Assembly: GCA_964016885.1 (NCBI GenBank) | Contig: OZ024742.1 | Location: forward strand, 350,796,001 to 350,860,000 | DNA from: Eledone cirrhosa | Lineage: Eukaryota | Direction: 5' to 3' | Length of the DNA stretch: 64,000 nt | In this document: piece by piece, positions 26,299 through 63,362 of the stretch | Position numbering within the stretch: position 1 is the stretch's first letter | How the letters are laid out: every line of letters starts with the position of its first letter | Made by a program: the position numbers and the translations under genes | Notes under the pieces: generated by a model | Seen by the model: only the letters and a program-made list of their open reading frames with translations | Databases searched by the model: none | What the model was told of the DNA's origin: nothing

Positions 26299-26553
26299 CT
26301 CACACACACACACACACACACACACACACACACACACACACACACACACACACACACACACACACACACACACACACACATATATATATATATATATATA
26401 TATATATATATATATATACATGAATGTATATATATATATTATATTTGGCAATATACCGTATGTTTAATTTAAAACATTTTGAAGACCTTACGCTATCAAC
26501 TTTAAAGTAGTGACTATAACAATTACATCTTTTCGGCGGAAGAAGGGAGAGAA

Positions 26554-26593
26554 GCTAACAGTCTGTTTCACGCTGGTTGAGTTTCATCACAGC
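26554..26593 (-). ncRNA. Degenerate minimal type I hammerhead motif
   Basis: gct GTGATGA aactc aacca gcgt GAAACAG a CTGTT agc; one core mismatch. Confidence 0.5.
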
Positions 26594-27899
26594 AACGCAC
26601 CCCCTACTTCCGCCGAAAATTATAGAAGCTGGATTCTTATAGAATTCCAATAATAATCAGGAGCTGATTATACAGACCAATTGCTGGTCCAGCAAAAATT
26701 AGGTATTAGGATTGGTGCTCTGAAATGACGATGTATATATATATAAATATATATATATATATATATATATATATATATATATATATATATATATATATAT
26801 ATATATATATATATATATATATATATATATATATATATGTGTATATATATATATATATGTGTATATATATATATATATATATAGCCCTACTATGTGAGCT
26901 GACCCTCACCATTTTCACGACCACTTTAAAACTTGTGTTCTGTGCAATCTGAATCATCTTCAGTAAAAATGTAGGATGGAATTTATAATTATATTTTTCA
27001 AATTTTCACTTTTGTAATATCACAATGACAACAAGAATAAAGTGAAAAACTTTGCCAGAAGAACGAAACAAAATGTAAAGCATTGAAGGCAAGAAATGTA
27101 TTAGATTAACGCTTGCAATAGCAGGAAATGAGTCTTAGCGTCTCGGATACTAGTCCTTCATCACAAAACAGAGTTAGAAATAAAAGACAAAATAGAAATA
27201 TAAAGTGGGCGAAGATGAAGGAAGGGGGTAAAAACGAACATTTCAGCAACGTCAGTCTGTATAGTAAAAATACATGAGAACTGCTTGCCATATGACACTT
27301 TACAATGGTCACAATGAGTGATTCAATACTTTCACAGTATTTCCTTGCAATAGAAAAGGAGGATTCCTGATGGGAATCTGAGAATGACGACAATCCAAAA
27401 GTTTTATATAAGAGAACTAAAGTACAAGAACTGTTACATTCAGATAAAATCTGCAGGAATTATATATATGTATATATATATATATATATATATATATATA
27501 TATATAACAAAGGAAGTGTGGGAAGGAACCAGGTAGATCATAACGCACCAGAATATTCAATACATAGGGTAGTAGAGTGGGTAATAAGAAAAATGTTCAA
27601 GACCCCGACGGCAGATGTCAAGCCGTTTCGACGGCTATCATAGTTACTGGTTTCTGAGAACAATTTTGTTAAGCTGGTGTCGGAAAAACTTCGATCTAAT
27701 CTTTCACTATTGAGAATATATGTTATATATAGGCAAGTTTACATTAATTCTCTTTTGCGTTCTGTCTATAATGTGATGGTTAATTTAAATTACTCATCTC
27801 CTGAAATACACCATGTTTATAATGTCCTACCATTGTAGAAACGTGCGTGTTTCACATGGAAATTCTTATGATCTGTTTTGTATAGTTTGATGTTGAAAA

Positions 27900-29300
27900 G
27901 CATCCGTCCTCCGGAGATTTTTGCCTCTAAATATAGTAATAACATAATGGACAATAAAATTCAAAGTGAATTAGATGTAGTACCAGCAACGGAAAATTGA
28001 TGCAAGTCATCAGGTGCATTGGTCTAGTCTGTGGGACTATAAATGTTGAGCATAGATTAAATGTGATCAGTTGTTAACCCATAACCCCAGAATACTGAAG
28101 ATCTTTCCTCGTGGCATCTTTGCTGATATTGCCATATATATTTCCAATTTCCGACAAATTGTAGAAAATGACTGTAGAAAATGATTTTCTGTATAGGCTG
28201 TTAGGTAATATATTTAAATTGCTATGAATGATATATTAATAGCAAATAAACATTGCTCCCATGTTATAAGATGACGATAATTAGAAGACTATCTTCTTAA
28301 TACAGATAAGAAATGTTACTGCCAAGTTTATCACCTAAACATGTCCAATTATATTGCTATAAAAGAGTTAATTGGGTGCAGAAAACTATACCCAAGTATT
28401 TAGATCTAATATTTGCCTCGTTTTAAAAAATATGTATAAAAAAATGATTTTGCATTCCAAAGTGATATTCATATCAAAGCATAATTCAGCTTTTTCTTCT
28501 TCAAAGAACTGATAATCCACTTTTGAAAAGTCGGAAATGCAAAAGCTTTACTTACCGAATCGGAATAAAATATTTCATTTATGCATCCAATTTTTATTTA
28601 TGATGTGACTAAAACATAAAACCTGTTTGATCTTTTAATCGAAGTTTGCTATTCAGAAGATGAGCATTGTTATATATATTCAAAAACTTCCCATCTTTAT
28701 TAGGAAATTTAATGTAAGCATCTTCATAGATGCAGCTATTTTCCTCCCTGTAGCTTAGTTTGGAAAAACGTTAAATTATAAATTTCTACCGAATATTTTT
28801 TCAAATCAAATTATATAGAATTTCTCAGGAATTCATAACATTGCTTGGACTAGATAATATGATGATTAAATTGAATCTGATTAATGAACAGTTATTTTAT
28901 TTTTTCCATATTTTTTTCTCTTCATCTTGAATTATTTTTTATGTAGATGTAATGTGCTTTTACTTTAAAAGAGTATATCTTTCAACTCATATGCACCACT
29001 TGAGGCAATTCAAAACAATTGAATAAACGTGAAAGAACTAAGAGTTTTAGTGGACTAAAATAAAGATGGAATAATTTAATAAATAAATCATGAGGAAGTG
29101 TTTGATATTTTGTCAGATATTGGCAGCTTTATAAACAATGGACAATATTTGTTTCATGAGTCATTTTAAAGTGTATTTCCCTTGTTACATACAAAGGGGA
29201 GTTTGGGAAGGAATCTAATTGAAAGTGGAAAGTAATGTGATTGACCAATTTTTAACGATGAATAATATCCAGTTTTCAAAATGTTGTTGTTACAACTCAG
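27900..29300 (-). pseudogene. Heavily eroded LINE RT remnant
   Basis: Minus strand SKYLGIVFCTQLT (~28370-28405) and RSHLIYAQHL (~28035-28068) resemble KYLGxxFDxxL and RSxLxYA; no open frame. Confidence 0.4.
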
Positions 29301-30340
29301 AAGTATGAATATAAGAAGTGTAATTCTCTGGTATATAGGCATTCATTAACGTTAGAAATTAATCTAGAATATAGTCGGTTTAGGGATCCAAGGTCCCTGT
29401 TATAGAAATGTATTTTAGAACCGCCTTTGCCAATTAAACAGTTGCCCAATAAAAGTCTAAAATGTTGTCCCCTTCTAGTGAGTAGCAACTTTACTTGCAC
29501 AAGGAAAATGAATTAATAATGATGGTTTTCCAAAACCTGGAGCACATAATCTCGATTAAATGTTAATCTTGATGTTTATAGTGAGGCGTCTATTGTTTAC
29601 AGAGCAACTCTAAAACATATGTGCTGTAATTCAAAAGCTATTAGCAAGAGTTTCTCTCTTCGTAGCATAGAGGAAAATAATATCAGAAATTTTAACACAG
29701 GAAAACAAATGTAGTGAGAATCAAAGTATATTTTACATGTTAATTGTGTTGCCAGTCATTATTTCAAACCAGAGTTATAAATAACAGGAGCAAATGACTA
29801 TTATATTAATGATCGTGAAAAGCTGGTAATATAGACAGCCCGTATGGTAAATATAGGTCCCCAAACCTGTAAATATGTGAAGAATTGATGAGAATTACAC
29901 TTTCAATTTCAAACGTATCGTTAAGTGCTACTAAATATATATAATTAATGTAAGTATTAAGGTTATATACATGTACGTATAATGTTCATAATGCACTTAC
30001 TAATAGCAGAACTAAATAGAAGAACCAGAATGTGCGGCCTGTAGGTCTTAAAGGTCTAACATTGTACCTCTTGTCTAATTGTATTAAGTGTCCGTGACTT
30101 GCTTTTTTAGGTGTACCAAACGCATATTTATTACGATGTATATCATAATATATCGCTTCTATGGTTAGGTCAAACGTAAGAAGCTCGCCTGATATAATTT
30201 TGGAACAGCCAAAGAAAGAGTAACATTAGGATTCATTTTAAATTATTTCAGCGTAGTTTAGTTTATCATGCAATGCATTCATATATCTTCAGTTACTAGT
30301 TCGAAATACATAATAAGAGTATTGAAGCTACATAATGTTG

Positions 30341-61048: not shown

Positions 61049-61113
61049 TATTTCATTATATATATTTCAAGGATACCAAGTTACATTATGGTATGCCTTC
61101 ATCAGACAAAATA
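61049..61113 (-). ncRNA. Type I hammerhead ribozyme
   Basis: tattttgt CTGATGA agg catacca..tggtat cctt GAAA tatat ATA atgaaata. Confidence 0.7.
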
Positions 61114-63231
61114 CAATATATAACAGATTTATAAATAGACATTGACGTACCCCTTTTAAAAATTGACCGTTGTTTTCGGAAGCCATCAGGATAGTGATTT
61201 GTTTACTTTAGTAAGTCATAGTTTTAAGAGTAAGTAAAAAGATGGAGAGAGAGAGAGAAACGTGGAGAAAAGAAAGGGAGAGATAGATAAAGAAAAAGAA
61301 GAAAACAAAAAGAAAAGAGAACAGAGGAAAAATAACGGGGAGATATCAAACCATCAGACGGAGAAAAAAATCCAGAGAGATATATAGAGATAGAGAGAGG
61401 GGCGAGAGAACGAAAGCCTTAAGTAATATCATATTAAGTTGAGTTAACAATTGGGATGAAAAGCATAAATAAAATTAGAAATATTAATATTGATGAATGG
61501 AATATAGATATATAATATGAGAAATTACACATTGTTTAATTATGATTAGATATTTAGTTTAAAATTGAGAAAATATATTAAAAATTGGAATTTAAACATT
61601 ATAAAATATATATATTGCTAGAGAGATTATCTATCGCATATTACATACACATAGGCAAAGGTACATAAATATATATATATACACACTCACTCAGTAAATA
61701 CACATTATGTCTACTCCCGCACACAATATATATATACAAAGCATAAGTGATTTTTTGCCATACCTTCCCTGTGTTATTAATTAAAAATTAAAAGTTTTTA
61801 GTATATATATATAAATATATAGGATTAACTTTCATGCATTTATGGCTGTTAAGTTATGCATATCTGCAATCAAAAAACTGCATGTGTAAGCCTGTACATT
61901 CACATCCATAATTCTTAGCTATACATGAATAGATATGTGTGTGCATCTTCAATTGGTATACACGCGTCACTCATGCATATATACAGACAGACATATAATC
62001 ATAAAAAAGCATATAACACATGTATATGTATGTCAACACACACATATAGATACATTAGCCGTATATAGATATAATCAACATATAACATAGTACAATTGAG
62101 TATATAAAATACAAAAGGATTATATTTTTGGAAATATAATTATATCAATATAACTTAAAAAGCAAACAAATTCTACAAATATCAAAATACTAAAATATCC
62201 CAAAATATTATAGAATATTTTAAGTTAAAATAATGTTTAATATATTTAGTATAGAAATTAATCTTACGTATATTTTAATCAAGATATTGAAAGGACAAAC
62301 TTTTGAAAATTATGAGAAGCTATCAGAATAAAAAATAAATCTAATAAAAATTATGAGAGGCTATCAGAATAAAAACAAATCTAATAAAAAAAAAAAAATA
62401 AAAAAAAAATAAAATGAATCTAATAAAGAAATAAATAAAATGAATCTAATAAAAAATAAATCTAATAAAAAATAAAATATTATATCAATATAACTTAAAA
62501 AGCAGGGATTCTACAGATATCAAAACATTAGAAAAAAAAAAAAATTTTTTTTTTAATTTTTAAAAATTCTTAAAAAATCTTTAGAAAACATTTCAAAAAA
62601 TAAAAAATAATCTTTAAAATTTAAAAAAAATTTTAAATCTTAAAAAATTTTAAAAACTCTTAAAATATAGAATATTTTAAGCTAAAATAATATGTTTAGT
62701 ATAGAAATTTATCTTACGTATATTTTATTCAAGATATTGAAAGGATAAACTTTTCTAGAATAGATTATTATATTTATAATTATATTTATGAAGAAAATTT
62801 ATACTTGGGTACTTAACCAAAGAAAATGAAAAAAGGTGAAGGAATCTAATGATTTATCGACAGGTTACATACATTAACTAAATTACTTAATTAATTAAAC
62901 TACATTTTAAATTTATATTTATATTTAAACGTTGAGTTCAATCTATGTCTGCAGCAACTGAATAAATTATTCCTTAAATTAAGGGAATTTTTGGTCTGAT
63001 ATCTCCCCGTTATTTTTCTTCTGTTCTCTTTTCTTTTTATTTTCTTCTTTTTCTTTATCTATCCCTCCCTTTCTTTTCTCCACGTTTCTCTCTCTCTCTC
63101 CATCTTTTTACTTACTCTTAACACTATGACTTACTAAAGTAAAGAAAACACTATCCTGATGGCCTCCAAAAACAACGGTCAATTTATAAAAGGAGTACGT
63201 CAATGTCTATATATAAAACTGTTATATATTG

Positions 63232-63296
63232 TATTTTGTCTGATGAAGGCATGCCATAATGTAACTTGGTATCCTTGAAATATATATAATGAAATA
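63232..63296 (+). ncRNA. Type I hammerhead ribozyme (mirror copy)
   Basis: tattttgt CTGATGA aggcatgcca..tggtatcctt GAAA tatat ATA atgaaata. Confidence 0.7.
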
Positions 63297-63362
63297 AATA
63301 TGGTTTTATAAATATAGTTTCCATTTATTAATATCGTATATATATATATATATATATCTATA

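Follow-up and report, generated by a model that had tools for sequence, protein, structure and literature searches.

In the portions of the literature covered here, to which every citation in this text is limited, the systems closest to the repeats described below are Penelope-like elements (PLEs) that carry an endonuclease. Craig et al. (2021; PMC8557442) describe an inverted, 5′-truncated copy, a tail of 30-40 bp that is often present at one end only, a bias toward (TA)n and target site duplications (TSDs) that cannot be discerned, and they attribute the tandem and inverted structures to features of the transposition cycle that had yet to be defined. Arkhipova et al. (2013; PMC3846280) found the head-to-head arrangement to be the most frequent form, with the tail on one of the inverted pseudo-long terminal repeats (pLTRs), and proposed self-priming on antisense RNA. 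Cervera and De la Pena (2014) reported that pLTRs contain minimal hammerheads, and described U3-A8 variants and pairs on opposite strands at distances of 100-700 bp; a curation guide mentions inverted pLTRs, while the covered parts of PMC9977147 and PMC13282606 hold nothing on head-to-head structure. We analyzed a window of 64,000 nucleotides of the Eledone cirrhosa contig OZ024742.1 (G000:C3:350796001-350860000), which lies within a 3.0-Gb genome rich in TA repeats and in which the original prediction had recognized six large and four small inverted pairs of hammerhead-bearing PLE sequence, reading them as a systematic, palindrome-generating route of insertion or break repair. The palindromes are real and occur genome-wide; they represent a trait already established for PLEs, here in new families whose clades are known. 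The head-to-head structure itself is ordinary PLE biology, already published as the usual arrangement (PMC3846280, PMC8557442), which leaves a new route unsupported.

Like the published endonuclease-bearing PLEs, the families in this genome have an inverted copy located at the 5′ end, a one-sided tail, partial tandems, a (TA)n bias and palindromes at the junction (PMC8557442, PMC3846280). They differ from the published accounts in the length of the tail (about 55-170 nt, against 30-40), in a one-tail state that is near-strict and has been counted, and in the great abundance of the pairs. New relative to the literature covered are the two fixed 3′ ends of each family, with one of each per pair, the private variants shared by the two arms, and the rare mixed-family pairs. 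No two-primer, one-tail rule is stated for PLEs in the literature searched, although it may be present in two works outside that search, Arkhipova (2006) and Evgen'ev and Arkhipova (2005). The one-tail rule adds something modest and testable to the question of mechanism. Together with the shared variants and the barely overlapping pairs, it argues against self-priming as the sole route and makes the question of origin testable in an existing in vitro system.

The uniform polarity noticed in the window, with both 3′ ends outward (3′-out), holds throughout the genome and is not random. Joints were counted with references for eight families (A to H) as same-family arms on opposite strands no more than 30 bp apart, in the window, in a systematic sample of 60 evenly spaced 10-kb stretches (600 kb), and in loci fetched by similarity, namely the best 25-30 per family for nine families (A to I) plus 20 for the open reading frame (ORF) of family C. 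Among 259 directly joined pairs, 254 were 3′-out: 7/7 in the window, 20/20 in the systematic sample, 75/77 in loci fetched for another family and 152/155 in home loci, those of G and H being biased, since the pair itself served as query. Of the five 3′-in cases, three have TA between the arms, a fourth is the twin, lacking TA, of a locus of this kind, and the fifth has no true ends. Within 1.5 kb, 3′-out neighbors number 303 and 3′-in neighbors 35. A family-blind hammerhead scan of the systematic sample, covering 73 inverted-repeat rows, gave 16 out, 1 in and 56 without a hammerhead, and 3′-out polarity extends to family I (13/13) and to the families of the window copies at 30613-30756 (12/12) and 63374-64000 (2/2). 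Short interspersed elements (SINEs) in the same loci, used as a control, gave 11 versus 10 within 1.5 kb and 5 versus 1 within 300 bp. The 23 pairs of the eight families found in 600 kb extrapolate to ~100,000 in the genome, and these families alone place about 1.8% of the sampled DNA in pairs. Two loci on different contigs (L272 and L274) hold nearly the same two-copy arrangement of family C, in which the facing 3′ ends are separated by 20 bp of TA in one and by none in the other.

A further regularity is that each of the eight families (8/8) has two sharp 3′ ends, one lying beyond the other by about 55 nt in A, 168 in B, 81 in C, 80 in D, 114 in E, 90 in F, 79 in G and 84 in H, and that a pair nearly always combines one tailed and one short end. 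Starting from 286 out-pairs within 300 bp, we dropped 73 in which an end lay off the terminus or at a locus edge; the remaining 213 comprised 202 with one tailed and one short end, 6 with two short ends and 5 with two tailed ends. The queries for A, C and E contained the tail, and the one-tail state was found in 13/13 pairs for which the query had none. In the unselected sets, it was found in 84/89 (p about 1e-19 against one half). Some of the exceptions are miscalls arising from SINEs in D or from merged arms; in D, some same-end calls are false because a SINE sits at the short-end site. This SINE, present in the window at 48641-48850, recurs at the short-end site of family D in L163, L165, L168, L170 and L176.

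The junctions between the arms, and the kinship of the arms themselves, offer mechanistic clues. Central junctions are mostly unique to their locus, with 31/32 distinct in A and 38/39 in C; families G and H have junction hot spots, yet 40/57 and 24/33 are distinct, in searches biased toward the window's own form. Miniature inverted-repeat transposable elements (MITEs) or foldback DNA transposons were considered as an identity for the pairs and rejected, because the junctions vary by locus and the tail is on one end, although the pairs are readily mis-annotated as MITEs or as microRNA hairpins. In the unselected sets, the short arm reached further 5′ in 37 pairs, the tailed arm in 12, and the two were equal in 33. 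In 21/161 pairs the tailed arm consists of little or nothing beyond the tail, and the arms therefore barely overlap. Since either arm can be the longer and some arms barely overlap, neither is always a copy of the other. At the same time, the two arms of a pair are related: in the 64 pairs whose arms have 80 or more positions in common, none of them from D, E or G, 324 shared non-majority variants were counted versus 83 expected, the partner arm was among the nearest tenth in 35/64, and mixed-family joints numbered 2 versus 181 same-family joints. Overlaps of at least 4 nt occurred at 46% of the 101 insert-free junctions versus 22% of simulated joints. We keep this figure, which rests on a simulated BLAST control; a first count by exact extension (57% versus 19% with at least 2 nt, n=54 of 254 junctions) proved overly sensitive to divergence and was not retained. 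The 5′ ends of the arms cluster at fixed spots of the family references, in family A at a CAAGATGGCG motif, which we take to be a YY1-type promoter element; this clustering suggests cDNAs extending as far as the 5′ end of a pLTR transcript.

At their outer ends, the pairs are closely associated with TA tracts. In the systematic sample, (TA)4 lies within 24 nt of 69/74 termini, against a background of 7.5%, and TA is present at both ends in 170/204 one-tail pairs. For 13 termini the continuation is known, and every one of them has 2-6 nt in common with the TA tract; two of these cases rest on one copy. No TSD is readable in the window pairs, in agreement with the original prediction. A TA tract masks any TSD, and no clear TSD was seen among 47 pairs with a weak TA flank.

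In L1 twin priming, the internal site at which the second primer anneals varies and overlap between the arms is slight, whereas both starts in the present families are fixed near the pLTR end, so that the arms overlap and form palindromes. The L1 process is otherwise a close parallel, in that cDNA synthesis on the retroelement RNA is primed from both ends of the target and the two products are then joined, which leaves a 5′ inversion (PMC10191854, bioRxiv 2024.12.14.628481). Biochemical precedent comes from PAc, a Poseidon element for which Frangieh et al. (2024; PMC11167929) observed in vitro that both strands are cleaved and extended, with two start sites bounding the tail. PAc resembles the present families in its AT-rich target, its two internal start sites and its predicted dimer; it differs in belonging to another clade, and neither the inverted structure nor a one-tail rule is derived in the text covered (PMC11167929).

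From these results we infer that each pair probably arose in one event, in which the element's own endonuclease cut both strands of (TA)n, each end primed cDNA from one or other of two fixed sites, and end joining linked the truncated cDNAs. The GIY-YIG endonuclease, predicted in print to act in a dimer, would cut both strands of the TA tract; priming would take place at the tail site for one target end and 55-170 nt upstream for the other, with 2-6 nt of AT pairing as a probable aid; the two cDNAs would stop early or at the 5′ end of the RNA, and end joining, with short homology or inserted bases, would connect them. That both ends prime and that two cDNAs are then joined, as had been proposed from the window alone, thus stands as the best mechanism. 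What is not supported is priming of both ends at an RNA 3′ end, since the starts are two fixed sites 55-170 nt apart, which are internal in a tandem or full-length RNA. The simplest reading of the one-tail rule is likely that one RNA is copied twice; two RNAs in an asymmetric complex also fit. More tentatively, and with somewhat less conviction than doubt, we suggest that integration is by rule two-ended, such that a dimeric protein makes two cDNAs of one RNA from two fixed sites, one for each strand of the cut TA tract. If true, two-ended integration left on the order of 100,000 palindromes in this genome, and tail and palindrome are two marks of one reaction common to the Hydra, Neptune/Nematis and non-autonomous retrozyme families.

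Several observations weigh against this account of paired priming. Inserted bases occur at 55/156 junctions, where 22 are expected from noise, so joining is not simple annealing. In the systematic sample, 33 termini have no called partner, several of them hiding a very short tailed one. The kinship of the arms is uneven: 7/64 pairs are no closer than the median, the arms of A, C and F in the window are not especially close (percentiles 0.29, 0.42 and 0.95), and the shared variants could also be explained by later gene conversion between arms or by a single active subfamily. For PAc, no difference in start site was seen between the strands, nor any primer-template homology (PMC11167929). An empty-site proxy drawn from repeats yielded candidates for 15 of 210 pairs, of which only L109 is convincing; there, other copies have 8-32 bp of TA and the filled site has about 125 and 40 bp. 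Sequencing-run data (three contig sets of one sample and three runs of restriction site-associated DNA sequencing), four of them compared with 30000-37400 and three with 51640-52120, contained no empty allele and no record bridging a junction. It is by inference, then, that both strands are taken to be cut at a pre-existing TA tract.

The alternative already in print is self-priming or fold-back, in which a palindrome lets either an antisense transcript or the first cDNA fold back and be copied, and the hairpin is integrated (Arkhipova et al., 2013; PMC3846280). It predicts the near-identical arms and same-family pairs that are seen, and many junctions are indeed near-symmetric and lie in self-complementary sequence, especially in families G and H, which counts against paired priming as well. 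A one-way fold-back, however, makes one type of arm always the longer, and both directions occur (37 versus 12); the arms barely overlap in 21/161 pairs, each arm of pair E has a sequence arrangement absent from the other, and fold-back alone does not yield two fixed ends. We therefore regard it as unlikely, while the most serious of the rivals. Considerably less probable is repair without the endonuclease, in which TA tracts break spontaneously and the PLE reverse transcriptase (RT) patches both ends. Long TA tracts are fragile, both ends of the pairs lie in (TA)n, the termini share short AT homology with the tract, and the inserted bases and short homology at the junctions resemble end joining. 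Against this, the autonomous families encode a GIY-YIG endonuclease with a linker motif that published work connects to TA targeting, SINEs at those loci are without such pairing, and the fixed, asymmetric ends suggest an ordered complex. We found no evidence for the break-repair role that the original prediction had allowed; the fixed ends and the clade-typical TA preference fit the element's own endonuclease.

Two separate insertions, or a rearrangement, would require that a second copy inserted at the 5′ end of an earlier one, or that both orientations arise and 3′-in pairs have been purged. TA tracts do gather many elements, 35 3′-in neighbors occur within 1.5 kb with the closest mostly separated by TA, and the PLE protein cuts its own pLTR in vitro. 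Such a history would nevertheless give mixed families and random tail states, instead of 2 mixed versus 181 same-family joints and a one-tail state in 84/89, and the arms share variants; we consider it slightly more improbable than repair. Finally, an artefact of assembly or of long-read fold-back is scarcely credible: one arm segment of E is identical over 177 bp and the junctions are unbridged by read data, but divergence between the arms is 2-8%, with indels, for A, B, C, D, F and the other segment of E, the tail is one-sided, the flanks are not mirrored, and the family-specific ends can be followed on many contigs.

The identification of these sequences as unrelated PLE families was borne out, in that nine family references lack mutual blastn similarity and A, B and C have motifs of endonuclease-bearing PLEs. 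In family C, frames that stay open for 715-805 aa contain RT (YRDD) as well as endonuclease motifs; family A has an RT-thumb-endonuclease frame and family B an endonuclease end. The clade calls for these three rest on motifs and not on a tree with reference proteins. Judged in this way, B and C are Hydra-clade PLEs. Members of that clade, including Hydra-1_Obim of Octopus bimaculoides, likewise have a C-terminal GIY-YIG endonuclease, a CxCX5C linker, hammerheads and (TA)n (PMC8557442). The motifs of family C are the CxCX5C linker, CxxC and CxH around a conserved E and N, and DKT, with no CCHH; it differs from the clade, to which it is likened by motif description, in having RWI where the paper has RWK and in a longer 3′ untranslated region (PMC8557442). 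Family B has the linker, CxxC and CxH and likewise no CCHH, the sequence compared being the endonuclease end, with N-terminal motifs beyond its reach. By its motifs family A carries the Neptune/Nematis signature of a CX2-5CxxC linker (CX4CxxC in this family) and CCHH with a C-terminal endonuclease, and is assigned to either of these two clades. The Naiad clade, which has an N-terminal endonuclease and no canonical hammerhead, was rejected for A, B and C, whose endonucleases are C-terminal and accompanied by hammerhead motifs. Single loci of G and H have Hydra-like endonuclease matches upstream of the arms; of the endonuclease-like matches sought near arms, none could be tied to D, E, F or I, nor any ORF to family F. 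Homologues numbered 39, at 28-40% identity, and Pfam recognized no family on the PLE frames. In loci L273 and L275 the order is pLTR-ORF-pLTR, with the tail continuing into the beginning of the ORF.

Complete type I hammerhead topology is present in the references of A, C, D, E, F, H and I, in which cleavage is predicted only; family G has the U3-A8 hammerhead variant and family B the core only. An Rfam scan gave no hammerhead family among the matches listed (150 of 169), which were only sub-threshold, microRNA-like matches on repeats. In family H (e.g. L318), a hammerhead-like fold of putative activity has the core CAGAAGA instead of CUGANGA, and this is kept across copies. Families D, E and I consist of tandem non-coding monomers of ~460, 540 and 290 bp with a type I hammerhead, and tandem arrays of such monomers occur in L114, L100, L159 and L252. 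To judge from this organization, they resemble non-LTR retrozymes, which according to a preprint derive from PLE pLTRs (bioRxiv 10.64898/2026.07.22.740005). They differ from these in that the monomers also insert head-to-head at (TA)n, in D and E with two fixed ends.

Within the window, where arms were defined by masked self-BLAST and arm alignments, all six large inverted pairs were recovered near the positions first given, with arm identities of 92-100% and E-values of 1e-60 or lower. Five of them (A, B, C, E and F) are sound head-to-head structures, but the right arm of D is broken. The CUGANGA core is on the minus strand at left and on the plus strand at right in 6/6, as predicted, and ORF remnants agree with the hammerhead sense in A and C. 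The spans had been roughly right, except that the extra tail on one arm was missed, F beginning at 60913, one small pair at 35133 and another extending to 36635. Adjacency to (TA)n likewise proved correct for both ends of A, B, C, E and three small pairs, but only in part for F and not for the ends that had been given for D.

Pair A (30965-32325), of Neptune/Nematis type and with TA on both sides, has a short-ended arm on the minus strand (30965-31525) and a tailed arm on the plus strand (31537-32325, tail of 55 nt), with 16 mismatches in 557 between 30969-31525 and 31710-32265. A frameshifted remnant of the family A GIY-YIG endonuclease C-terminus lies at 31537-31870 on the plus strand (97-98% identity by tblastn with a natural family A copy), and minimal type I hammerheads lie at 31122-31156 (minus, left arm) and 32077-32111 (plus, right arm). 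Another repeat forms a 26-bp perfect inverted match (30814-30839 and 32359-32384) outside the TA tracts flanking this pair. Pair B (33677-34791; Hydra-type 3′ ends, TA on both sides) has a short minus arm (33677-34140) and a tailed plus arm (34152-34617, tail 34618-34791), which differ at 21 positions in 464; its hammerhead cores at 33832 (minus) and 34463 (plus) fold without canonical closure. Pair C (43930-48012; Hydra-type, TA on both sides) has a tailed minus arm (43930-46501, tail 43930-44010) and a short plus arm (46501-48004), with 79 mismatches in 1516 between 44011-45526 and 46501-48004. Its hammerheads are degenerate, with cores at 44103 (minus) and 47912 (plus) and with GAAA mutated in both copies. 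The family C ORF is represented by a broken 3′ half, with RT thumb, linker and GIY-YIG endonuclease, at 45267-46501 on the minus strand, and its final 87 codons are repeated on the plus strand at 46501-46761.

Complex D (48552-49829) is a tandem of the ~460-bp hammerhead monomer on the minus strand, whose true left, tailed end is at 48552, with a broken plus arm (49633-49829) that has no 3′ end. It is interrupted by SINEs at 48641-48850 and 49443-49632; the left arm has a full hammerhead (core at 49054), the right copy ends before the cleavage site, and 48985-49141 and 49673-49829 differ at 12 positions in 157. Pair E (51333-52370), a tandem of the ~540-bp non-coding hammerhead monomer with TA on both sides, joins a tailed minus arm (51333-51775) to a short-ended partial dimer on the plus strand (51774-52370), with 6 mismatches in 325 between 51451-51775 and 52050-52370 and 0 mismatches in 177 between 51333-51509 and 51774-51950. 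Contigs from sequencing runs have TA loose ends at both termini of E. Pair F (60913-63336) combines a tailed long minus arm, from 60913 to at least 62777, with a short plus arm at 62992-63336; 61009-61284 and 63061-63336 differ at 12 positions in 276, hammerheads lie at 61057-61105 (minus) and 63240-63288 (plus), and the left flank has a short TA run and (CA)n only.

Three of the four small pairs are 3′-out pairs of families F, H and G, each with TA on both sides. The F-type pair (35133-35303) has a tailed minus arm and a short plus arm, 35133-35252 matching the F tail at 74% and 35250-35294 the F end at 93-96%. Pair H (36432-36635) has a short minus arm and a tailed plus arm, joined at a palindromic GATC within hammerhead stem II. 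Pair G (52638-52807), with a tailed minus arm and a short plus arm, has the 3′ half of a U3-A8 type hammerhead. The fourth, 26530-26619, is not a pair: it was rejected as an inverted insertion and represents a 16-bp stem I extension of one hammerhead within a single ~290-bp retrozyme-like monomer of family I (26446-26733, minus strand), which lies between TA tracts and has a mutated core in the window copy. A second, damaged G pair, absent from the original prediction, consists of a minus fragment and a tailed plus arm ending at TA (33326-33450); a direct duplication around a TA run (32541-32883 and 32988-33329; 344 bp, 94% identical) cuts it. A solo copy of another hammerhead family lies between TA tracts at 30613-30756 (minus), and a likely tandem monomer of ~590 bp at 63374-64000 (plus) has a U3-A8 hammerhead at 63680-63757.

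Other elements in the window include a satellite of 99 copies of a 44-bp unit with 87% matches (12208-16561), a broken Helitron ORF with Rep and PIF1 helicase domains (54809-58876, minus) and a long interspersed element (LINE) with APE-type endonuclease and RT domains (2202-5340, plus). Two RT-bearing LINE fragments, presumably RTE-like, lie at 50130-51255 and 35612-36075, the former running right up to the TA tract in which pairs E and G lie. Among the loci fetched from elsewhere, L280:7046-10000 is a trinucleotide-based repeat of ~3 kb that is open in several frames.

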